Under the pieces are notes generated by a model. That model saw only the letters and a list, made by a program, of their open reading frames with translations. It did no database searches and was not told the DNA's origin. 64,000 nt of DNA, taken from Pyrinomonadaceae bacterium (GTDB lineage Bacteria > Acidobacteriota > Blastocatellia > Pyrinomonadales > Pyrinomonadaceae). Positions 27,905 to 52,349 of this stretch are shown one piece after another (position 1 is the first letter of the stretch; each line of letters starts with the position of its first letter). The stretch lies in assembly GCA_044229875.1 (NCBI GenBank), contig JBGASE010000001.1:29639-93638 (forward strand). Direction: 5' to 3'. The position numbers and the translations under genes are program-made.

Positions 27905-29917
27905 TCAGATCAGCGATTTCGCAAGCGCAACCGCGTTATCAACCGTGAATCCGTATTCGCGGAAAACGACTTCAGCCGGCGCCGACGCGCCGAAGCGGTC
28001 GACCGCAAGCACGTTGCCGCCGTCGCCGACGTATTTCGACCAACCCATCGAAACGCCGGCTTCAATTGCCAACCGCGCGCTGATCGACTTCGGCAAGACC
28101 AACTCACGGTATTCGGCCGATTGCTCGTCAAACAATTCCCAGCACGGCATCGAAACGATGCGTGTCGGAATACCTTCCGATTCAAGTTGTTCGCGGGTTT
28201 CGAGCGCGAGACCAACTTCGGAGCCGGTGGCGATAATGATCAGTTTCGGCGCGCCTCCGGTCGCTTCGGCGAGTACATAAGCGCCTTTCGCTGTGCCTTC
28301 GGCCGAGGCAAATTTTGTCCGATCGATGAGTGCTGTCTTTTGCCTCGAAAACGCAAAAGCCGTCGGCGCGTGCCGCCGGTTGACGGCAATTCGCCAAGCC
28401 TCACGCGTTTCGTGTGCATCTGCGGGACGGATGACCGCGAGATTCGGGATCGCGCGAAGGGCGGCGATATGCTCAACCGATTGGTGCGTCGGACCGTCTT
28501 CGCCAAGACCGATCGAATCGTGCGTGAAAACGTAGATACACTGCGCGTTCGAAAGAGCCGCAAGCCTGATGGCGGGCCGCATGTAATCCGAGAACGTCAT
28601 GAACGTGCCGCCGAACGGTATCAGGCCGCCGTAGAGCGCGATACCGTTCATGAGCGAGCCCATCGCGTGCTCGCGAATGCCGAAATGGATGTTACGGCCC
28701 TGATAATTGCCGGGCTGATGCGATGTCGACGATTTGATGACGGTGTTGTTTGATGGAGCAAGGTCCGCCGATCCGCCGATCAGTTGCGGAAGTTTGTCGG
28801 CGATCGCGTTGATCACTTCGCCCGAATAGGCGCGGGTCGCTTTTGCCTCGGCGCCGTCGAACAAAGGAAGCGCCGTTTCCCAATCAGACGGAAGTTCGCC
28901 GGCTGCGATTTGCTTGAAAATCGCACCTTCGGCCGGAAAACGTTCGGCGTAGGCCGCGACGCGATCGTTCCATTCAGCCTCAAGTTCAGCGCCGTTCCCG
29001 ATCGCCGCGCGGAAATGCTCAAGAACGGCATCCGGAATCAGAAACTCGGCGTCTTCGTCCCAGCCAAGATTGCGTTTCGTCTCGCGAACGGCATCAAGCC
29101 CCGGCGCGTCGGAGTGAGCCTTGTTCGTCCCCTGCTTCGGCATCCCGAATCCGATCACGGTTTTGACGCGGATCAGCGAAGGTTTGTCATCGACTTCCTG
29201 CGCCTCAAGGATCGCCGCTTCGATCGCTGCGAGATCGTTTCCGTCTTCAACCGTCGAAACATGCCAGCCGCACGATTCAAACCGCGCCGTCACGTCTTCA
29301 GTGAACGCCAGATCGGTCGAACCCTCGATCGTGATCTTGTTGTCGTCGTAAAGATAAATGATATTTCCAAGCCCGAGATGACCGGCGACGGACGCCGCTT
29401 CGTACGAAATTCCCTCCATCAGATCGCCGTCGGAACAGATCGCGTAGATGTAGTTATCGACGACCGGAAAATCGGCTCGGTTAAAGGTCGCCGCGAGATG
29501 CGCCGAGGCGATCGCCATCCCGACGCCGTTCGCGAAACCCTGACCCAACGGGCCAGTCGTCACCTCGACACCGGCGGTCATGTGATTTTCAGGATGACCT
29601 GGCGTTGTAGAACCGAACTGGCGGAAATTCTTGATATCGTCGAGCGACACCGAATCGTAACCGGTCAGATGAAGCAGACTGTAGATCAGCATCGAGCCGT
29701 GTCCGCCCGAAAGAATGAACCGGTCGCGGTTGAACCACTTTGGATTCTTCGGGTTGTGCCAAAGGAACTTGGTCCACAGAACATAAGCCATCGGTGCCGC
29801 GCCGAGCGGAAGTCCCGGATGGCCGGAATTGGCTTTCTGAATCGCGTCGAGCGAAAGCGTGCGGATCGTGTTGATTGAAAGTTGTTCGATCGATTGTTGT
29901 GTCATCGTTGCCGTCAT
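27905..29917 (-). CDS. tkt: transketolase
   Basis: Start chosen at [55 protein letters not shown] motifs. Confidence 0.95.
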
Positions 29918-30040
29918 ATGTCTCGCAGATGGCCGTATTGGCTCGGAAGTACAAAATTGGAAATCGTAAAATAAATGATAGACCCGAAATCGCCTTTCGT
30001 CATTTCGGCACGCCACTTAGAAGGAAAATTCATATCATTG

Positions 30041-30295
30041 CTGAACCGCGCACGCAGTAAGCGGGTGTCAGCAAGCAGTAAGCGGCGAGCAGCGCGCAGT
30101 GCAGAACCGCGCACGCAGTAAGCGGGTGTCAGTAAGCAGTCAGCAGTGGACAGCGCGCAGTGCAGAACCGCGCACGCAGTAAGCGGGTGTCAGTAAGCAG
30201 TGAGCAGTAAGCGGCGAGCAGCGCACGCAGTAAGCGGGTGTCAGTAAGCAGTGAGTCGTGCAGTCAGACGCCAGACGTCAGTGAGCAGTGAGTGG
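30041..30295. repeat. about four tandem copies of a 61-nt unit containing the 29-nt motif GAACCGCGCACGCAGTAAGCGGGTGTCAG
   Basis: Units start near 30043, 30104 and 30165, with a degenerate copy near 30221. The inter-motif segments are also near-identical, so this is a minisatellite. It lies between the tkt start and the FGGY kinase stop. Confidence 0.9.
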
Positions 30296-41548: not shown

Positions 41549-43407
41549 ATACCGTCGGCAACATCGTGCCAAATGCCACAAAGGTTGTGCGAACGCGGGT
41601 TCCGCTGTTTGAAGACGAACCGCGGACACTGGGCGAACTGTATGCTTTTGCGGCCCGAAAGCATGACCGGCCTGACGCGCTCAATTACAAAAAGGACGGC
41701 GCGTGGCATCGGATCCCGACTGTCGAAATGATCGAACGCGCCGGCAACATCGCGCTTGGCCTGCATTCCCTCGGCTTGAGAAAAGGCGATACGGCCGCGA
41801 TTCTCGCGGCAAATTCGCCCGACTGGACGATAACCGACGCCGGTTGCCAGATGTCGGGCGTGATCGACGTGCCGATCTACACGACGTTGGCGCCGAACGC
41901 CGTTGCCTACATTCTTCGGGATTCCGGTGCGCGGGTTCTCTTTGTCGAAAATCATGCCGGATTTGAGCGTTTGAAAGATGTCATCGCCGAATGTCCGCGG
42001 CTTGAAACGATTGTCGTCTTCGAGGCCAAAGAATCGGATGATGCTGATACGATGCCGATCAGCGAACTTGAACGGATCGGCGCTGGCGTACGATCCGATA
42101 ATCCGGCGCTGATCGAAGAACTTCTCGCTGCCGTCAAGCCTGACGATATTGCGACACTGATTTACACATCGGGAACGACCGGCGAACCGAAAGGCGTGAT
42201 GCTGACGCATTCAAACCTTGTTTCGAACGCGATCGACGCCGGCGAAAAATATGGTTTTTCCGAAAGCGACGTCCCGCTGTCGGTACTTCCGCTTTCGCAC
42301 GTTTTTGAACGCACCGGCATGTACCTTTACATTCTCAACGGAATGGCGGTTCATTATGCGGAATCGCTTGAAAAAGTCGCTGAAAATCTGCGCGAGGTCC
42401 GTCCGACGTTGTTTGTCGGTGTCCCGCGGATTTTCGAAAAGGTCTATGCCAAAGCTAAGCTCAAGGCGGCTGAGGACAGCAGTTTCAAAGAGCGGATTTT
42501 TGATTGGGCGATCGGGATCGGCAAATCGGTGGCGCTCAAGCACGAACGCAAGGAAGACGTCTCGACGATGCTCGCGATCAAACATTCGATCGCGGACAAG
42601 CTCGTTTTCTCAAAATTCAGAGAGTTCTTCGGCGGCCGCTTGCGCTTTTGCATCACCGGCGGCGCGGCGCTTTCCGAGAATGTGTTTCTGATCTTCAACG
42701 GCGCCGGCGTTGCGATCATGAACGGCTATGGATTGACCGAAACTTCGCCGGTGATCACATCAAGCAACCCGATCGACGTCCGCCTCGGAACGGTCGGCAA
42801 AGTCATCAGAAATGTCGAGGTCCGGATCGCGGAAGACGGCGAGATCGAAGCGCGCGGACCGAACATTATGCTCGGCTATTACAACAAACCGGATGCGTCC
42901 GAAGAGGTTTTTACCGAGGACGGCTGGTTCAAGACCGGCGACATCGGGGAATTCGATTCCGAAGGATATCTGCGCATCACCGATCGGAAAAAAGAACTCT
43001 TCAAGACTTCGGGCGGAAAATACATCGCGCCGTCGCCGATCGAGCAGATGATCAAAGGTTCGCGTTTCGTCAGCCAGGTCGTTCTGATCGGCAACGAACG
43101 CAAATTTCCGGCAGCGCTGATCGTCCCGAGCTTTGATCAACTTGCGAGCTTCGCGAAAGAACACGGCCTTGATCTAGGTAAACCTGACGAGGTTTGCGCG
43201 CACGAGCGCGTGATTCAGTTTTTCGAACGCGAAGTTAACGAATACACGCAGGAACTCTCAAACTACGAACGTGTAAAACGCATCGCGCTGCTTCACAAAG
43301 AACTCACCGTCGAAGGCGGCGAACTGACACCGACCCTAAAAATAAAGCGCCGTGTCGTCAACGAACGATACGCAACAATCATCGAGCAGATCTACGAAGA
43401 GAGCTAG
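41545..43407 (+). CDS. long-chain fatty acid-CoA ligase (AMP-dependent synthetase)
   Basis: 620 aa. AMP-binding motif LIYTSGTTGEPKGVMLTH, and later GWFKTGDIG...GYLRITDRKKELFKTSGGKYIAP. Confidence 0.9.
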   Translation: MNTVGNIVPNATKVVRTRVPLFEDEPRTLGELYAFAARKHDRPDALNYKKDGAWHRIPTVEMIERAGNIALGLHSLGLRKGDTAAILAANSPDWTITDAGCQMSGVIDVPIYTTLAPNAVAYILRDSGARVLFVENHAGFERLKDVIAECPRLETIVVFEAKESDDADTMPISELERIGAGVRSDNPALIEELLAAVKPDDIATLIYTSGTTGEPKGVMLTHSNLVSNAIDAGEKYGFSESDVPLSVLPLSHVFERTGMYLYILNGMAVHYAESLEKVAENLREVRPTLFVGVPRIFEKVYAKAKLKAAEDSSFKERIFDWAIGIGKSVALKHERKEDVSTMLAIKHSIADKLVFSKFREFFGGRLRFCITGGAALSENVFLIFNGAGVAIMNGYGLTETSPVITSSNPIDVRLGTVGKVIRNVEVRIAEDGEIEARGPNIMLGYYNKPDASEEVFTEDGWFKTGDIGEFDSEGYLRITDRKKELFKTSGGKYIAPSPIEQMIKGSRFVSQVVLIGNERKFPAALIVPSFDQLASFAKEHGLDLGKPDEVCAHERVIQFFEREVNEYTQELSNYERVKRIALLHKELTVEGGELTPTLKIKRRVVNERYATIIEQIYEES

Positions 43408-43669
43408 TGTTCGAGCTTCTCCGCAGTCGCGGATTTTCCATCGCGCAAAACCTGCGCCGGCGATTTCTCCAAGGTTCGCACCTGAAGGCCGTGGCAAATG
43501 AGCCTTTGGCAGGAAGACTCCAAACGCATCAACATTTGGCGGCCAGAGCATGACTTGCCACGAGCTTCAGCTAGTGGGTTGAATGTCCTTAAAATAGAAC
43601 TGGGCTTTAGCCCAACTGAGTCGTTTTGGCTAAAGCCGGAATTCTTAGAACTCCTGACCCACAGCCTGA

Positions 43670-43804
43670 AGGCCGTGGCAATACTACCGGGCCCGTTGGT
43701 ACGATTCTAATCTCGGACGATTCATCTCCGAAGATCCGATCGGCTTCGCCGGCGGCGATGTCAATCTTTACGGGTATGTCGGAAACGGACTATATGACCA
43801 ATAA
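43670..43804 (+). pseudogene. Rhs/YD-repeat core junction remnant with the toxin domain deleted
   Basis: This frame reads RPWQYYRARWYDSNLGRFISEDPIGFAGGDVNLYGYVGNGLYDQ*. That is the RHS repeat-associated core signature, preceded by a stop and truncated 4 residues after the core. Confidence 0.8.
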
Positions 43805-44060
43805 CGAACTATTCATTTGCAGAGTTTGTGGTTTGACCCAGACTGATATGCCGTGGGGCGAAAGTGGAGAAGACCCGAGTCACGACATTTGCGATTGCTG
43901 CGGAACAGAATTCGGATACGAGGACTCTTCAATTGATACAATTAAGAAAAACCGGGAGATGTGGCTGAAGTCGGGGGCAAGATGGTGGAACAGTAAAGTC
44001 CTGCCGAATGACTGGATTTTGGACGAACAGCTTGAGAATATCCCATTGCAATTTAGATAA
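43794..44060 (+). CDS. small Cys-rich protein (CPCC-family-like), immunity-like
   Basis: 88 aa from ATG 43794, which overlaps the remnant's end. CRVCGL...PWGE..EDPSHDICDCCGTEFGYED pattern. The track ORF 43626.. is a read-through artefact upstream of this ATG. Confidence 0.65.
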   Translation: MTNNELFICRVCGLTQTDMPWGESGEDPSHDICDCCGTEFGYEDSSIDTIKKNREMWLKSGARWWNSKVLPNDWILDEQLENIPLQFR

Positions 44061-44135
44061 TCGCCCGCCTCGGGATTTTTCGCTCCGATAACGATGCCGA
44101 ATCTTCCGAAATGACAAATTGGAAAAGGAGCCGAA

Positions 44136-44381
44136 ATGCTTGTTGCAAAAGTGATCGTAAATGAAGAAACGGGAATTCCAACCGGCGAGGTTGAGCTTGT
44201 TCTTGACCAAAACGGACTTCATGAACTTTGTGAAAGACTCGAATGGATTCGGCGCGGAGAGACGGATCATTTCCACCTGATGACGACCGAGTGGGGCAGC
44301 GGTGAACTTCAGATCTTTCAGGAATCAGAGAAAGAGAAGCTTGTTCATCACTTCAAGGTCCGTCATGTGCCGGAAGTCTGA
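44136..44381 (+). CDS. small immunity-like protein (Imm32-like by recollection)
   Basis: 81 aa. AAGGAG lies 6 nt upstream. GLHELCERLEWIRRGETDHFHLMTTEWGSGEL pattern. Confidence 0.6.
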   Translation: MLVAKVIVNEETGIPTGEVELVLDQNGLHELCERLEWIRRGETDHFHLMTTEWGSGELQIFQESEKEKLVHHFKVRHVPEV

Positions 44382-44548
44382 TTTCGGGAGTTACTCGACA
44401 ATGCCGATGCACGGAATGCTGGCAGTTCGAATATACGCATTGGTTTATGTTTTGAATTCGATTTCGTATCGAATAAATCGAAGATCGCTCACCCGATGAC
44501 TCAGACGGACATTCGATTGGTCAGAAAATACTTGGAGAAACGCAACAA

Positions 44549-44861
44549 ATGAACAACGTAGTTGAGAAATTAGAACTCTTTCGAGATTTGGCTCGGATGG
44601 AGTGCGGTCCGGCATTTTTCGATTTCCATAATGATTTCGACTTTTCCGGATGGTCATATTCAGATCGAACACTGATCTTTTGCTTCACGAGACCGACAGA
44701 TGATCTTGACCCTTGATACGCTTTATCGGGGTCGATTTGAGAATGAGGGAGAATTGCTCGACGTTTCGACTGACGGCAGATTTTGCATATGCTTCGATTT
44801 TATTGACGGATTTGATGGTCGCTTTCTATGTGAAGGATTAGAAGTCACGCCCTCCGTTTAA
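44549..44861 (+). pseudogene. frameshifted small immunity-like gene (55-aa plus 53-aa halves)
   Basis: ATG 44549 with GGAGA upstream opens MNNVVEKLELFRDL...TRPTDDLDP* (stop 44714-44716). An overlapping frame from 44700 continues ILTLDTLYRGRFENEG...EGLEVTPSV* to 44861. Confidence 0.45.
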
Positions 44862-44882
44862 ACGATTTTCGAATGCATTTGG

Positions 44883-44925
44883 GGTATTTTGGATTTGTGA
44901 TTTCGGATTGCGGATTGCCGCACCC
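44883..44925. repeat. 43-nt GATTTCGGATT-family repeat (copy A)
   Basis: GGTATTTTGGATTTGTGATTTCGGATTGCGGATTGCCGCACCC. 42 of 43 nt identical to 46889-46931. Confidence 0.85.
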
Positions 44926-44936
44926 AAGTAGAGTAG

Positions 44937-45353
44937 ATGACGTTTGATGAAGTTAGCACACATACTGCGAACGGGTCTGTTTGTGTAGACATTATCTCGA
45001 CACCGCAATACTCGGGATTCGTGAGAAAAGTGATTTTCTATCCGAGAAATCGGGTGTGTATAGAGTTTGTCGGCAAAGATGTTGGCGAGGATGAAAGCGG
45101 ATATGAATACTGTTGTACGTTTTCGTCACTCAATGAAGCGATACGTAGCATTGAACAGTTCCTTGATAAACCGCTCTCGAATTGGACAAATCATACGAGG
45201 TCCGGGACCCGGCCAAGAATCCAAGAGCCGACCAATATCAAGACGGGCCATGAGTTGCTAAAAGGTGACATAATTCGCTCGAGAATTCCCCTTCCGAGAA
45301 TTGGAGTTTATACGCCTCGGTTCGACCTCAATATCTTTGAATCACCGCACTGA
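44937..45353 (+). CDS. hypothetical 138-aa protein (immunity-like by context)
   Basis: ORF directly after repeat copy A, in the low-GC island. No family recognised. Confidence 0.5.
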   Translation: MTFDEVSTHTANGSVCVDIISTPQYSGFVRKVIFYPRNRVCIEFVGKDVGEDESGYEYCCTFSSLNEAIRSIEQFLDKPLSNWTNHTRSGTRPRIQEPTNIKTGHELLKGDIIRSRIPLPRIGVYTPRFDLNIFESPH

Positions 45354-45569
45354 GAGATTCGCGAAAAGAGTCAAGCTGTCATACGCTCGTATTCGACCAG
45401 ATAATGGCGCGCTATTCCGAAGTAGCCGATCCATTCAGCGACGGAAGCGGCGGTGAGTGATGATGCAGTCGTAATTACCCGACAGTCATACCTTCGTGTA
45501 AGACCAAATAGTGCCGCGACATTCCGATGGTGACGGCAGAAGGAGCTATCAGCGTCCATTTGAGGACAG

Positions 45570-45995
45570 GTGATTGTTATGAATGAAAACCAAACTGATT
45601 CGTGGATTCCAATCGAGAACAGCACGCAATGGCATCAGCTTGCTGAATCGTGTGACTATTTTGAGGACGGAGTGGTTCGCGAACTTAGTTGGACGGGCGG
45701 CGAATATGTTGATGCGAATCGGCAAATGAACTTCAAAGGTCTTCCGTTTGTTTGGCTTCTGATTCAAACGCAGAACGCCTCGGCTCCAGCGATTGAATTC
45801 CTGGTAATGGATGCCGTTGAAATCCGTTTGGATCATTCCTTCGCGCCCGAGTTCAACATGGTCTTCGGCGCGAATGGGATCTTATTTGAGCTTTCACCCA
45901 GCGGTGCCGGGTTTATTCGCGGGGCCCAATTATTTTATAGAATGCCGGAGCGACAGTCATTGGGAGAAACAGGCTTGTTGACAGGCCACGAATAG
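45570..45995 (+). CDS. hypothetical 141-aa protein (immunity-like by context)
   Basis: GTG 45570 or ATG 45579 start after GAGGA. No family recognised. Confidence 0.5.
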   Translation: MIVMNENQTDSWIPIENSTQWHQLAESCDYFEDGVVRELSWTGGEYVDANRQMNFKGLPFVWLLIQTQNASAPAIEFLVMDAVEIRLDHSFAPEFNMVFGANGILFELSPSGAGFIRGAQLFYRMPERQSLGETGLLTGHE

Positions 45996-46140
45996 ATCTT
46001 TCACGTCCTGGAAGTACCCGCTCAAGCCACCAAGGCGGCAACGACTGAGATGGAATCCGAAATTCGGAGCCTTGAAGTTACTTTCAAGGTAACAGTCTCC
46101 TGTAAGTCGTCGCCGACCTCTCGTATCGACGAATGCCGCC

Positions 46141-46194
46141 GAAGATCCGATCGGTTTCGCCGGCGGCGATGTCCCGTTACCTTTTTCAAATTGA
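46141..46194 (+). pseudogene. short degenerate Rhs junction remnant (EDPIGFAGGDVPLPFSN*)
   Basis: Positions 46144-46173 are near-identical at the DNA level to the junction copies at 43733 and 47018, then diverge and hit a stop. Confidence 0.7.
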
Positions 46195-46311
46195 TGAGAC
46201 GATAATATTGATGCGCTTTTGGAGATTATCGTTCCTTATCTCGAAGATATTGATCGATTGGAATTGGCTCAACCTGTCTAAGAAAGTCTTCTTTCGGGGA
46301 CGAATAGCGAA

Positions 46312-46749
46312 ATGAAAATAGAGGAACTAGTTTTGAACTATCGGGGATTTCTCGTCGATGCTTGGCCGACAATGAAAGCGATCTTGGCTGAATGGGATTG
46401 GGATTCGTCGCCCTACTTCGTCGACGAGTGGATGCAGGCAAATTGGGAGCTCTTGGTCGAACGGCCCCTCGACATCAAACTTCCTCCATACGGATTAGAT
46501 CGCTCAACAAAATGTCGATATATCGATCCCGGGGTCATGCCCAGTCACGAGATCTTAGTCACCGAATCTGGTTCGATTCAGCCGCCACGCCTACGATTTC
46601 TTTGCTTCGAAACGAATAGGGACGGTGTAAGTCGGTTTGAGCCGCCTTTTGATCGCGTTTTTGTTGAAGACCCCAAAACGACTAAACGCTTTTCAGTTCA
46701 ATTGCCCGAATTAAGGTTCGACCTTAGAACAATTGAACAACGAAGTTGA
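46312..46749 (+). CDS. hypothetical 145-aa protein (immunity-like by context)
   Basis: ORF downstream of the second junction remnant. No family recognised. Confidence 0.5.
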   Translation: MKIEELVLNYRGFLVDAWPTMKAILAEWDWDSSPYFVDEWMQANWELLVERPLDIKLPPYGLDRSTKCRYIDPGVMPSHEILVTESGSIQPPRLRFLCFETNRDGVSRFEPPFDRVFVEDPKTTKRFSVQLPELRFDLRTIEQRS

Positions 46750-46761
46750 CCACGAACATAG

Positions 46762-46888
46762 TCGCAGTCGCAAGGGCGTCAGCGTTTCATCGTCGGCGGG
46801 AAGGAGAACACGAAGTTCATCTATCACGGTGCCGACGTCATCGCCGACGATAATTCCGGAACGCTGACGAAATACATCAACGGCCTTC
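46762..46888 (+). pseudogene. Rhs core fragment (..QRFIVGGKENTKFIYHGADVIADDNSGTLTKYINGL) truncated by a repeat insertion
   Basis: Matches the usual Rhs pattern x-Y-x-Y-D-G-x-x-hI-A-E-x-D-x-x-G-x-h-x-x-x-Y-h-x-G. It begins just after a stop and ends where the 46889 repeat starts. Confidence 0.6.
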
Positions 46889-47015
46889 GGTATTTTGGAT
46901 TTGTGATTTCGGATCGCGGATTGCCGCACCCGACAAACGCAAACGGCGTACCCGCGTGTTCGATAATTTCAACGGACACCAAATCCGAAATCGGAAATCT
47001 GAAATCCCAAATTGG
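46889..47015. mobile_element. MITE-like element (about 127 nt) with imperfect GATTTCGGATT-type terminal inverted repeats
   Basis: The left end equals repeat copy A. The right end is CACCAAATCCGAAATCGGAAATCTGAAATCCCAAATTGG in opposite orientation. It sits exactly between the Rhs core fragment and the DPIGFAGG junction. Confidence 0.55.
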
Positions 47016-47656
47016 ATGACCCGATCGGCTTTGCCGGCGGCGATGTCAATCTTTACGGGTATGTCGGAAACGGGCCGCTCGGAGCGGTTGATCCGTTTGG
47101 GCTCGAGGCCAGCTACTGGAATGAGATTGCGGATTCCGCTGATGATAGCATCGAGTATGCACGGCAGTTTTATCAGCCGGATCCGCATGCGATCAATACG
47201 AATACAGCGGTCAATTTTGTGTCGTATATGGCCCACGGCACCGTTGATTTACTTCGCGTCGGCAACGGCATCGCCGAGGCCTATTATTGTGAAGAAACGT
47301 GGGAAGGGCGCGCGGCATATGTATTGATGGACATTGCGCGAGCGTCAGGGATCGCGAGCATTGTGCTTGGCGGCGCAGTCGCGGGTGGATTATCGAAGAT
47401 TCCTCCTTCGCGATTTCTCACACGACCAATCAGGTTGCCGGGTAGAGAATGGCCTCAAGGCGGAAAGACATTTCGTGTGGCTCCTTTTGGAAATAACACG
47501 ACCCATCCGATTGGTAGGTGGCCCCACTATCATAGACTCGGACCTAAGATTATGAAGGGGAAAAAGAAAGGCCAGACAATGCCCGGCCAGTCTATGAAGC
47601 GTCACCGTCCGTGGGAATCGTCTCCGTACGATAGATCGTTTTGGGACCGGTTTTAG
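47012..47656 (+). CDS. orphan Rhs C-terminal toxin cassette (core junction plus about 180-aa unrecognised toxin domain)
   Basis: TTG-initiated ORF (M)DDPIGFAGGDVNLYGYVGNGPLGAVDPFGLE, the complete Rhs core end with the DPxGL motif. Followed by a novel domain with a Gly-rich hydrophobic segment and a basic tail carrying PHYHR and HRPWE. Confidence 0.8.
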   Translation: MDDPIGFAGGDVNLYGYVGNGPLGAVDPFGLEASYWNEIADSADDSIEYARQFYQPDPHAINTNTAVNFVSYMAHGTVDLLRVGNGIAEAYYCEETWEGRAAYVLMDIARASGIASIVLGGAVAGGLSKIPPSRFLTRPIRLPGREWPQGGKTFRVAPFGNNTTHPIGRWPHYHRLGPKIMKGKKKGQTMPGQSMKRHRPWESSPYDRSFWDRF

Positions 47657-47669
47657 AGGAGGTATAAGC

Positions 47670-48011
47670 ATGTCAAGTGAAGTTCGACCACCGATCATCG
47701 TCAACGCGAGTGGGGACGTCTATTTTTACCGCACAGTGGCTGAGGTGGAATTGGATTTGGAAGTTCCAGACGTGCGAAACGGCGAGTATGAAGTTTTTGA
47801 TTCACACGGACGTGTTCTTGGGCTCGAGGTTATTTCCAGTGCAATTCAGGATCTGGTGAGAGTGGTCTCGACTGAACGGTTCGATCCCGAGTATTTGCGT
47901 GACTTCATGATCTCTTTTTTCACGGTTGCTGGGGAGAACGAATCGGGGTTGCGCTCAATGCACCTTCGGGAGTTAGTCGATCTTGGGTTGCGTCTATCAA
48001 ATCGCATGTGA
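47670..48011 (+). CDS. candidate cognate immunity protein (113 aa)
   Basis: ATG lies 13 nt after the toxin stop, with AGAGGAGG 7 nt upstream. Small acidic protein; no family recognised. Confidence 0.7.
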   Translation: MSSEVRPPIIVNASGDVYFYRTVAEVELDLEVPDVRNGEYEVFDSHGRVLGLEVISSAIQDLVRVVSTERFDPEYLRDFMISFFTVAGENESGLRSMHLRELVDLGLRLSNRM

Positions 48012-48041
48012 CATTTCTATTGAGTTACTACACAAAATCGC

Positions 48042-48064
48042 GGTAGTGGGTCTGACCCACTACC
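48042..48064. other. perfect 10-bp hairpin GGTAGTGGGT-CTG-ACCCACTACC flanked by AAAATCGC direct repeats
   Basis: Read directly from the sequence, at the right-hand edge of the island just upstream of ffh. Confidence 0.6.
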
Positions 48065-48079
48065 AAAATCGCCAATTCC

Positions 48080-48117
48080 TTGACACATTTGACATCGCCG
48101 ACTAGTATTTATAGTTT
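48080..48117 (+). promoter_or_regulatory. candidate ffh promoter(s): TTGACA-17-TAGTAT and overlapping TTGACA-17-TAGTTT
   Basis: Two TTGACA hexamers (48080 and 48089), each with an A/T-rich -10-like hexamer at 17-nt spacing, 30-60 nt upstream of the ffh ATG. Confidence 0.3.
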
Positions 48118-48144
48118 CGGCTCTAAAGCCAGAAGTGTCTCTAT

Positions 48145-49650
48145 ATGTTCGAATCGCTTTCAGACAAGCTGAAGAAAACGCTGAAGAATCTGCGTGGGCA
48201 GGGCAAGCTGACGCCCGAACATGTTGATATCGCGTTGCGAGAGATTCGGATGGCGCTTCTTGAAGCGGACGTGAATTACAAAGTCGCCAAGGATTTTGTC
48301 GAATCGGTCCGTTTGAAGGCTGAAGGTCAGGAAGTCTGGCAGGACCTCAAACCGCATGAGCAAGTCGTCAAGATCGTTTATGACGAACTTGTCGAGTTGT
48401 TTGGCGGCACGTCGTCGCGGCTTGTTTTTACGAAGCAGATTCCGAACGTCGTGATGATCGTCGGGCTGCAGGGTTCGGGAAAAACGACCTCGACCGGAAA
48501 GATCTCGCGGTGGCTCGCCGACAATCAGGAGCGGAAACCGCTTCTCGTTTCGGTTGACGTTTACCGTCCGGCGGCGCGCGAGCAGCTCAAGGTTGTCGCC
48601 AATGCCGTTGGGACATCGATCTTTGAAGACAAATCGACGAACGATCCGCTGACGCTTGTCCGCGGCGCGATGAAGCACGCTGTCGAGGTCGGATACGACA
48701 CGCTGATGATCGACACGGCGGGTCGCCTGCATATCGACGACGAGCTGATGGTCGAGCTCGAGCGGATCAAGTCCGAAACAAAGCCGATCGAAGTCCTGTT
48801 CGTTGCCGATGCGATGACCGGTCAGGACGCGGTTCGTTCTGCTGAAGAATTTCATCGCCGCGTCGGAATTACCGGCGTCGTTCTGACGAAAATGGACGGC
48901 GATGCGCGCGGCGGCGCGGCGCTCTCGATCAAACAGGTCATCGGACAGCCGGTGAAGTTTGTCGGCGTCGGCGAAAAGTACGACGCGATTGAGCCATTCT
49001 ATCCCGATCGGATCGCGCAGCGGATTCTTGGGATGGGCGACGTGCTGTCGCTGATCGAGGAAGTCCAGGGCAAGATCGACGAGGAAGAAGCGCAGAAGCA
49101 GCTTCAGAAAATGACGAGCAATCAGTTTACGCTCGAAGATTTTCGCGCCCAGCTCGGTCAATTCAAAAAGCTCGGTTCGATGACCAAGCTGATGAAAATG
49201 CTGCCTGAACAGATGACCGGCGGAATGCAGCTTTCGGATGAACAGTCTGAGCAGGTCGAAGCGCAGATGAAACGGACTGAAGCGATCATCGATTCGATGA
49301 CGCGTCAGGAAAGGGTCAACTACAAGCTCATCGATGCGAGCCGCAAGACGCGGATCGCAAACGGATCGGGCTCGACAATTTTGGAAGTCAATCAGCTGAT
49401 CCGCCAGTACGAGCAGATGCGCAAAATGATGCAGCAGATGAATCGTGGCGGACTGCTCGGGAAACTCGCGGGCCGTGCAATGGGCGGACTCGGAAGCGGG
49501 CTCGGCGGCCTTTTGGGCGGTGGCGGCGGACTTGGCGGAATGTTCGGCGGCGGTCCGTCGGAAAACGATTTTGACAACGATTACGACGAAACGCGTGACA
49601 CGTTGGCGAAGAAACTCAAGAAGAAGAAAAGACACAAGAAACGTAAGTGA
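48145..49650 (+). CDS. ffh: signal recognition particle protein Ffh
   Basis: 501 aa. GLQGSGKTTSTGK, DTAGRLHID, TKMDGDARGGAALS, and a Met-rich M domain with a Gly-rich basic tail. Confidence 0.97.
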   Translation: MFESLSDKLKKTLKNLRGQGKLTPEHVDIALREIRMALLEADVNYKVAKDFVESVRLKAEGQEVWQDLKPHEQVVKIVYDELVELFGGTSSRLVFTKQIPNVVMIVGLQGSGKTTSTGKISRWLADNQERKPLLVSVDVYRPAAREQLKVVANAVGTSIFEDKSTNDPLTLVRGAMKHAVEVGYDTLMIDTAGRLHIDDELMVELERIKSETKPIEVLFVADAMTGQDAVRSAEEFHRRVGITGVVLTKMDGDARGGAALSIKQVIGQPVKFVGVGEKYDAIEPFYPDRIAQRILGMGDVLSLIEEVQGKIDEEEAQKQLQKMTSNQFTLEDFRAQLGQFKKLGSMTKLMKMLPEQMTGGMQLSDEQSEQVEAQMKRTEAIIDSMTRQERVNYKLIDASRKTRIANGSGSTILEVNQLIRQYEQMRKMMQQMNRGGLLGKLAGRAMGGLGSGLGGLLGGGGGLGGMFGGGPSENDFDNDYDETRDTLAKKLKKKKRHKKRK

Positions 49651-51942: not shown

Positions 51943-51993
51943 AATTCGGATTCGTGAATTCGGATTTGGGATTTCGGAATTCGGATTTGGATC
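51943..51993. repeat. GATTTCGGAATTCGGATTTGG-type repeat block (opposite orientation to 52098-52349)
   Basis: AATTCGGATTCGTGAATTCGGATTTGGGATTTCGGAATTCGGATTTGGATC begins immediately after the rplS stop. Confidence 0.85.
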
Positions 51994-52036
51994 AACGTCA
52001 TCGCGAATCGCGCAACGCAACAGGAAGAGGCTTCTA

Positions 52037-52349
52037 TGTTGCGCCGCGCGTTTCGCGTTTTTGTTTTACTCGGGGACGGAACCTCGACCTCAACCCTGAT
52101 CAGAATCCGAAATCCGAAATCGGCGCGATTCGCCGTTTCGTTTTATCTGAAGCGTGAAACTCGAACTCTTCCCCGATCAGAATCCGCAATCCGAAATCAG
52201 AAATCCGAAATCCGAAATCCAAAATCCGAAATCGGCCTGGTGTTGCGCCGCGCGACTGTTGGTTTTATCTTAACAGTACGATGAACCTCGAACTTTTCCC
52301 CGATCAGAATCCGCAATCCAAAATCAAAAATCCGAAATCCAAAATCGGC
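52037..52349. repeat. three tandem units of about 90-115 nt, each ending in (A)ATCCGAAATC reiterations
   Basis: Units span roughly 52037-52124, 52125-52240 and 52241-52349. They share TGTTGCGCCGCGCG..TTTTAT..GAAC(C/T)TCGA(A/C)CT..CCCGATCAGAATCCG(A/C)AATCC..AAATCGGC. The third unit contains the rnhB ATG. Confidence 0.85.

Follow-up and report, generated by a model that had tools for sequence, protein, structure and literature searches.

A putative orphan Rhs toxin-immunity cassette in a Pyrinomonadaceae bacterium, formed by two protein families without a curated model

In Rhs proteins, the segment that follows the DPxGL motif is an encapsulated and cleaved toxin. Orphan Rhs-CT/RhsI cassettes (CT, C-terminal part), known from the arrays of E. 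coli and Salmonella and from Dickeya (RhsA-CT and RhsB-CT with RhsI), combine the end of the Rhs core up to DPxGL with a variable tip and, closely linked to it, a small immunity gene; they occur in tandem units, with repeated core-end DNA as a recombination substrate and a GC content lower than that of the flanks. We analysed a stretch of 64,000 nucleotides from a Pyrinomonadaceae genome (contig JBGASE010000001.1, positions 29,639 to 93,638; hereafter the window), in which a 214-residue open reading frame (ORF) and a 113-residue ORF just downstream of it share these features. The locus differs from the described cassettes in having no upstream parent rhs gene in the 64 kb, in a core cut to 30 codons that abut a 126-bp element, and in toxin and immunity families that lack a curated model. 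We consider it likely that the locus is a toxin-immunity cassette, orphan in this genome. Its kind is well known, and the new part is its two protein families. Orphan Rhs cassettes and new Rhs tips are common; the toxin described here stands out as unusually small and conserved, with a mean identity of 59% across phyla, and further for its wide spread, for the lack of a structural relative of either protein and for its occurrence in pathogenic Neisseria. The cassette and the element that precedes it consist of the following features.

46886 to 47011, no strand assigned: 126-bp element with 29-nucleotide terminal inverted repeats (inverted repeat I1, 79% complementary)
47012 to 47656, plus strand: orphan Rhs-CT ORF of 214 residues with a TTG start, a frame without frameshift or internal stop
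47015 to 47104, plus strand: Rhs core end, residues 2-31 (DDPIGFAGGDVNLYGYVGNGPLGAVDPFGL), recognised with the model TIGR03696
47105 to 47434, plus strand: pre-toxin or linker module, residues 32-141, isoelectric point (pI) 4.8, a module shared with other tips
47444 to 47653, plus strand: conserved putative toxin domain, residues 145-214, defined by alignment A4 and profile search
47655 to 47662, plus strand: Shine-Dalgarno sequence AGAGGAGG of the immunity gene, by direct reading
47670 to 48011, plus strand: candidate cognate immunity gene, 113 residues, with homologous downstream genes at other loci

The toxin domain of the window is small and strongly basic, with 15 Lys or Arg residues, 4 Asp or Glu, 4 His, a net charge of +11 and a pI of 11.3. 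Its motif reads R-x-APFGN, PHYHR and GQ-x3-RHRPW, followed by D-x5-RF at the C-terminus. In alignment A4, which comprises 24 sequences and 67 profile positions, 16 columns are invariant (R, A, P, G, N; H-Y-H-R; Q; R-H-R-P; D; R) and seven more are nearly so (E, F, G, P, G, W, F). Every residue that is invariant in the family is present in the window copy. When 1.84 billion representative proteins were searched with the profile, 608 clusters were retrieved at an expectation value (E) of at most 1e-3, of which 490 reached 1e-10 or better. The window domain itself scores about 1e-27 against this library and a profile search gives 47 homologues of the 113-residue protein, so that neither ORF is a product of chance.

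The original prediction had proposed looking for the motif at the C-termini of other polymorphic toxins, and this is where it lies: the domain ends no more than two residues from the C-terminus in 164 of the 164 members examined, full-length Rhs proteins among them. These members have a median net charge of +7 and a median of 4 His, and the domain spans 67-70 residues across the family. It forms the last 67 residues of P0157, P0159, P0174, P0176, P0194, P0206, P0209, P0210 and P0224, proteins of 925-3220 residues with RHS_repeat or YD-shell regions. P0176 combines RHS repeats with the CdiA-type domain DUF637 (E=8.6e-6), and P0022 has a weak DUF637 match that falls below the Pfam cut-off (E=0.02). 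The same domain is thus found on at least three kinds of delivery apparatus, the third being that of the Neisseria homologue described below.

The family reaches into well over ten bacterial phyla. A genome scan with one genome per species, from which the best 80 of 95 loci were retained, placed it in Pseudomonadota, Campylobacterota, Acidobacteriota, Actinomycetota, Chloroflexota, Planctomycetota and Bacteroidota, and also in Verrucomicrobiota, Lentisphaerota, Bacillota, Nitrospirota, Bdellovibrionota, Melainabacteria and Myxococcota. Among plasmids, a tblastn search with the domain yielded no more than two Neisseria records and a single Rhs protein, from Methylomonas. At several loci (L050, L070, L072, L075, L079, L085-L087, L089 and L095) the domain matches the profile only from position 1 to about 57, its DRSFWDRF tail being altered or absent, and the immunity homologue still lies directly downstream. 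By their sequence, these shorter domains may represent a distinct sub-family.

The original prediction described an acidic ORF of 113 residues that begins 13 nucleotides downstream of the toxin behind a strong AGAGGAGG site, and proposed it as the immunity gene. The coordinates bear this out: the toxin stop codon TAG occupies 47654-47656, the ATG of the second gene is at 47670, and 7 nucleotides separate GGAGG from the ATG. The encoded protein has 20 Asp or Glu against 11 Lys or Arg (pI 4.57) and carries no signal peptide and no transmembrane segment. The motif of its family is PPIIV, then E-P-x-D-V-x-N-G-E-Y and D-S-E-G. AlphaFold2 predicts a soluble alpha/beta domain with a mean per-residue confidence (pLDDT) of 93.1 and a predicted template-modelling score (pTM) of 0.84, in which a five-stranded sheet with two short helices is followed by three C-terminal helices.

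Its candidacy as immunity protein is strengthened by its linkage to the toxin domain. By hand, a homologous downstream gene was found at eight loci, namely the window, L001 (Pyrinomonadaceae), L003 (an alphaproteobacterium), L004 (Sorangium), L006, L010, L012 and L014 (N. gonorrhoeae). A gene of 93 codons downstream of the domain in L008 and L009 was also considered as a member of the immunity family; it fails to align, and these loci are exceptions. We then turned to the 68 genome loci in which the toxin domain is complete and is followed by 300 nucleotides or more of sequence. A same-strand match to the immunity family lies within 400 nucleotides of the toxin domain, directly downstream of it, in 66 of the 68, and only 2 matches to the family occur elsewhere in this set. 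The median offset between toxin and immunity gene is -9 nucleotides, and the two genes therefore often overlap. All 66 immunity homologues are net negative (median charge -6.5), and a strongly hydrophobic stretch of 19 residues is present in only one of them. Across the genome loci, pairs of toxin domains are on average 59% identical, and pairs of immunity proteins 25%.

Neither protein resembles a known family. The original prediction had stated that the roughly 180 residues after the core end belong to no toxin family that could be recognised, and profile searches of Pfam, NCBIfam and PDB sequences indeed assigned them to none. The window toxin protein matched no Pfam family at E of at most 1, and 24 members of the toxin family scanned singly gave nothing below E=0.33 in Pfam and E=0.23 in NCBIfam. 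The curated toxin families in these two libraries (Ntox/Tox-*, HNH/His-Me, deaminase, ART and BECR RNases) gave no significant profile match. Against PDB sequences, the best match of the toxin profile was an unrelated aminotransferase (E=0.1), and a search with the single sequence returned noise. For the immunity family, 44 members scanned gave nothing below E=0.05 in Pfam and E=0.011 in NCBIfam, and the best match of the profile among PDB sequences had E=0.3. Structure comparison with Foldseek, which the original prediction had also proposed, gave no PDB match below E=2.0 for the toxin model (0.29 against BFVD) or below E=0.49 for the immunity model (pLDDT 93; template-modelling score at most 0.31); the matches to the toxin model were generic helical bundles aligned to the pre-toxin helices. 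No profile or fold match linked the 113-residue protein to the known immunity families (Pfam Imm*, SUKH, Smi1/Knr4, CdiI or barstar-like).

The literature searched was equally silent. Strings of the domain motif returned one irrelevant match. Two large toxin surveys, the Levy-lab screen and Zhang et al. 2012, lack the motif in the portions of their supplements that were covered. The main text of Zhang et al. 2012 holds no fitting HxH-type toxin entry, Tox-JAB-1 being its only HxH occurrence. By these sequence and model comparisons, both proteins belong to families described in none of the libraries and papers searched. The domain is present in about 600 clusters over well over ten phyla and has no curated model. 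Once its activity is defined, a toxin mechanism or a minimal nuclease would be added to those known, and hundreds of "hypothetical" or "membrane" proteins could be annotated.

We propose that the 70-residue domain would be the toxic part and that the 113-residue protein would neutralise it through direct 1:1 binding; the two carry complementary charges, near +7 on the toxin domain and near -6.5 on its partner. The toxin would act in the cytoplasm of the target cell, because the immunity homologues are soluble and without an export signal. Its substrate would be anionic, with RNA or DNA as the likeliest candidates, because the pI is 11.3 and the family keeps polar residues of catalytic type invariant (Arg, Asn, His-Tyr-His-Arg, Gln, Arg-His-Arg and Asp, with a near-invariant Glu) rather than hydrophobic ones. 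The pair resembles the nuclease toxins colicin E3/E9 with Im3/Im9, barnase with barstar, and CdiA-CT RNases with CdiI in joining a small basic C-terminal domain (pI 11.3) to an acidic soluble immunity protein (pI 4.6) encoded directly downstream, and in an immunity protein that evolves much faster than the toxin. As in metal-independent RNases, the invariant residues of the family include His and Arg together with the acidic Glu and Asp. Unlike these nucleases, to which it has no sequence or fold similarity, the domain is smaller (67-70 residues) and its model is almost without regular secondary structure. That the toxin is a nuclease is a tentative suggestion, which we hold to be somewhat less probable than its opposite.

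Several observations weigh against this proposal. What speaks for a nuclease is residue chemistry and charge only. AlphaFold2 models the toxin domain with a pLDDT of 83-87 as a small, irregular and nearly helix-free structure with two short strands (FRVA and HYHR) and little else that is regular; no helix follows the strands as in a His-Me finger, Foldseek finds no nuclease and no PDB fold match, and neither a His-Me finger nor a barnase-like fold is supported. The three His and one Asp might just as well form a structural zinc site. The literature search found no report of toxicity, binding or enzymatic activity for any family member. The distances of toxin and immunity sequences are weakly correlated (Mantel r=0.21), a value that we do not use as evidence of interaction because linkage alone explains such a correlation. 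In front of the immunity gene there is only a weak sigma-70-like site (47259-47287), and sites of this kind are no more numerous than in shuffled sequence. Finally, the hydrophobic segment that precedes the domain, described next, is a trend only, with no clear transmembrane helix in most members. The widest form of the proposal is that the basic domain of 67-70 residues represents a new minimal class of antibacterial toxin acting in the cytoplasm, with a fold and mechanism unlike any solved protein, an immunity partner of new fold, and entry by whichever delivery system carries it (Rhs, CdiA-type or double-glycine bacteriocin); we regard this as possible and rather doubtful.

Compared with control windows, hydrophobic segments rich in Gly, Ala and Ser are commoner in the 60 residues before the domain. 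The median of the maximum Kyte-Doolittle value over 19 residues is 1.11 against 0.41 in the controls, and 28% against 6% reach 1.4; the value of 1.6 is reached in 25 of 160 members, and the segment varies in sequence and length. In our proposal, this Gly/Ala-rich segment would help the small basic domain to reach or cross the inner membrane. The same enrichment would also suit a membrane toxin, in which Gly-rich hydrophobic helices resembling a glycine zipper (for example GAVAG) insert into the inner membrane and either open a pore or collapse the proton-motive force, the basic domain anchors on anionic phospholipid head groups, and the soluble immunity protein blocks the toxin from the cytoplasmic face. 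Some bacteriocin immunity proteins are cytosolic, which would suit this scheme, whereas those of pore-formers are usually integral membrane proteins, unlike the immunity proteins found here, all 66 of which are soluble and acidic. What the family conserves is its basic domain; the hydrophobic segment differs between members and is weak in most of them, and sixteen invariant polar residues of catalytic type would be unexpected in a lipid anchor. We consider a membrane toxin unlikely, and retain cytoplasmic action on an anionic substrate as the preferred reading.

A further point in favour of a membrane toxin comes from Neisseria. In N. gonorrhoeae and N. meningitidis, a protein of 179-182 residues ends in the toxin domain (UniProt Q5FA66, annotated "membrane protein"), and a sequence that resembles a double-glycine (GG/GA) leader can be read in it by eye (LSQKEMKETEGA). 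Its immunity homologue, of 121 residues, overlaps the 3' end of the toxin-domain gene. The pair (5480-6366 in L013-L015 of N. gonorrhoeae) adjoins an outer-membrane beta-barrel gene, with a C39 peptidase gene nearby; from gene order only, the beta-barrel gene appears to be the FapF-like NGO_0166, which is mentioned without study in a 2025 paper on gonococcal autolysis (PMC11798529). The annotation, the apparent leader and the adjoining FapF-like channel gene are all consistent with action at the membrane. The leader-like sequence and the gene neighbours also recall the double-glycine bacteriocins that use C39 peptidase/FapF-like systems, such as the nap island of Neisseria (PMC11798529) and McbC/McbI of Moraxella (PMC2761928). 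The Nap peptides have 16-36 residues and no sequence kinship to the toxin-domain protein (PMC11798529), and the window copy is an Rhs tip and not a double-glycine leader peptide. We found no functional study in the literature on NGO0164-0166 and Q5FA66. The presence of the family in these two species, beside the apparent NGO_0166, gives it a medical link. Neisseria-like metagenome contigs (L005-L007) carry a corresponding locus.

The original prediction treated the roughly 180 residues after the core end, 183 by our count, as one domain. Its quotations of the Gly-rich stretch ASGIASIVLGGAVAGGLSKI and of the basic tail RVAPFGNN...WDRF agree with the sequence, and the lack of any Pfam, NCBIfam or PDB match stands, as described above; the single domain does not, since residues 32-141 and 145-214 are two modules. 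With residues 32-214 as the query, 28 proteins were retrieved. Among them, P0002 has 89% identity to the window ORF over residues 2-120 and then continues into Ntox24 (PF15529, E=6e-8), and P0003, with 62% identity, has the sequence in common up to SRFLTRPI and then a different tip; the two share only the first part of the 183 residues with the window, which rules out a single domain. The remaining matches have only the last 65-72 residues in common with the window ORF. Since P0002 and P0003 carry other tips and the rest match only the C-terminal end, we conclude that residues 32-141 form a separate pre-toxin module. It is found only in a few close relatives, including one from a Pyrinomonadaceae genome. 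AlphaFold2 predicts three long helices in it (CT residues 2-22, 30-61 and 66-93; pLDDT 53-79), the third of which is the Gly-rich hydrophobic stretch ASGIASIVLGGAVAGGLSKI. Like the PT-TG, PT-VENN and CdiA-CT cytoplasm-entry modules, it is placed between scaffold and tip and is reused with different tips; it differs from them in matching no Pfam pre-toxin family and in being found only in those few relatives. Its Gly-rich hydrophobic helix would suggest a role in membrane entry.

The exchange with Ntox24 also bears on whether the domain is a toxin at all. A constant position at the extreme C-terminus is known from some secretion signals, and no enzymatic fold is recognisable in the domain; it might then be a trafficking, receptor-binding or secretion-signal module, with the 113-residue protein as its chaperone or adaptor. 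This is very improbable in our judgement. The segment after DPxGL is established as the toxin of Rhs proteins, the domain takes the place of the known toxin Ntox24 behind one and the same pre-toxin module, it is delivered by N-terminal parts of at least three unrelated kinds, and its fast-evolving acidic partner (25% against 59% mean identity) is a signature of toxin-immunity pairs. A toxic domain thus remains our preferred reading.

The toxin ORF opens with MDDPIGFAGGDVNLYGYVGNGPLGAVDPFGLE, and its residues 2-31 match profile positions 48-76 of 76 in TIGR03696 (Rhs_assc_core) with E=4.9e-6; the score of 27 bits is under the 32.5-bit cut-off because the ORF contains no more of the model than its last 30 positions. 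Both halves of the DPxG...DPxGL autoproteolysis motif are kept, as DPIGF in residues 3-7 and DPFGL in residues 27-31. The TTG start codon is the first base after the 126-bp element, as the original prediction had seen when it ascribed this start to a repeat insertion; an in-frame TGA precedes it at 47000-47002, and direct reading finds no Shine-Dalgarno sequence before it. The terminal repeats of the element are made of GGATTTC/G heptamers, and the element itself is MITE-like or REP-like (miniature inverted-repeat transposable element; repetitive extragenic palindrome). A half-copy, 98% identical, is found 2 kb upstream at 44883-44925 (repeat family D3), and the heptamer motif occurs 14 times in the window where chance would give 0.15, with a dense cluster at 51948-52347.

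The cassette comes last in a 4.7-kb island (about 43400-48100) with a GC content of 0.43-0.55, compared with about 0.52-0.61 in the flanking genes. On one side the island is bordered by a 620-residue ORF, which by eye we take to be long-chain acyl-CoA ligase-like, and on the other by a 501-residue ORF that we likewise assume to be ffh. Rhs core-end DNA is present in three copies within the island, at 43730, 46141 and 47015 (direct repeat family D2). In addition to the core end of the toxin ORF, the island holds the following Rhs pieces.

43661 to 43789, plus strand: Rhs core-end remnant 1 (QYYRARWYDSNLGRFISEDPIGFAGGDVNLYGYVGNG), from the D2 family and frame translation
46141 to 46173, plus strand: Rhs core-end remnant 2 (EDPIGFAGGDV), which stops after 11 codons, from the D2 family and frame-3 translation
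46762 to 46884, plus strand: internal Rhs core fragment (..FIVGGKENTKFIYHGADVIADDNSGTLTKYING; ..FIYHGADVIADDNSGTLTKYING) without a start codon, from its identity to P0193 and L068

Remnant 1 reads YYRARWYDSNLGRFISEDPIGFAGGDVNLYGYVGNG up to a frame break, ends before DPxGL and is fused directly to a small ORF (43791-44060); it has 92-95% identity to the core ends of P0002 and P0003, and the core end of the toxin ORF (47015-47104) is 95% identical to it at the DNA level. The internal core fragment is 68% identical to residues 10-34 of P0193, whose DPIGF lies at about residue 124, and 57% identical to L068 2248-2352, where the core end is at 2563. In these intact relatives, about 90 residues separate the TKYING stretch from DPIGF. 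From this spacing we conclude that the 126-bp element occupies the place of about 90 missing core codons.

The small ORFs between the core-end remnants look like orphan immunity genes. ORF 44136-44381 has a weak Imm32 match (E=1.2e-3), and ORF 45570-45995 is 32% identical to the gene 3' of another orphan Rhs-CT in L010/L011; ORFs 44937-45353 and 46312-46749 of the island have no match. ORF 43791-44060 contains cysteines in the pattern CxxC...CxCC. Many other toxin-domain loci (for example L034, L091, L012 and L035) carry 3-5 Rhs core-end fragments inside 6 kb, so the toxin domain very often belongs to an orphan array rather than to the main rhs gene.

The description of the window ORF as an orphan Rhs-CT with a complete core end and DPxGL, made in the original prediction, is confirmed by the TIGR03696 match and by the lack of a parent gene: tblastn with seven full-length Rhs proteins found no parent rhs gene or RHS-repeat region in the 64-kb window, and its matches were confined to the core-end remnants and the toxin tip. 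A parent rhs gene may lie outside the window. The core end, of about 90 bp, is the only homology left for recombination into it. Given the TTG, the missing Shine-Dalgarno site and the core broken by the 126-bp element, the toxin ORF is an intact frame that, judged from its sequence, is probably untranslated and thus silent in this genome. The immunity gene, with a strong ribosome-binding site of its own, probably functions alone. In our proposal, the toxin would become usable only after recombination through the 90-bp core-end homology, and the immunity gene would probably shield the cell against relatives that deploy the same toxin.

The toxin half may thus be a reservoir for recombination or a decaying remnant. 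On the second account it has no present or future role, and only the immunity gene is selected, as the final member of an island of orphan immunity genes that protects against the Rhs toxins of neighbours. Decay would fit a core broken by a repeat element and by the deletion of about 90 codons, a TTG without a Shine-Dalgarno site, the lack of a parent rhs gene in the 64 kb, and neighbouring island units that are already cut down to truncated core ends and small ORFs (one with the weak Imm32 match, one matching the L010 gene). It fits less well with a 214-codon frame that is intact and keeps all family-invariant residues, and with the 90-bp core-end identity that is still there for recombination; the parent gene, moreover, may be situated beyond the window. 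A contig from a second sample (L096) adds to this. It is identical to the window over the toxin ORF from 47302 to 47656, and when its positions 1-1791 are compared with 47302-49092, a single base differs across 47302-48515 (toxin, immunity gene and the first 370 nucleotides of ffh), whereas ffh has 26 differences in the next 575 nucleotides after 48515. This pattern indicates that the cassette was recently exchanged or conserved, with a recombination boundary inside ffh; an identical toxin sequence in a strain whose ffh differs at 26 sites argues against decay. We think decay quite possible, at somewhat less than even chances.

Away from the island, positions 30036-30276 of the window hold 4 tandem copies of a repeat of 51-61 nucleotides (CAGTAAGCGGGTGTCAG...), just downstream of a 703-residue ORF on the minus strand (27905-30016) that presumably encodes a transketolase.

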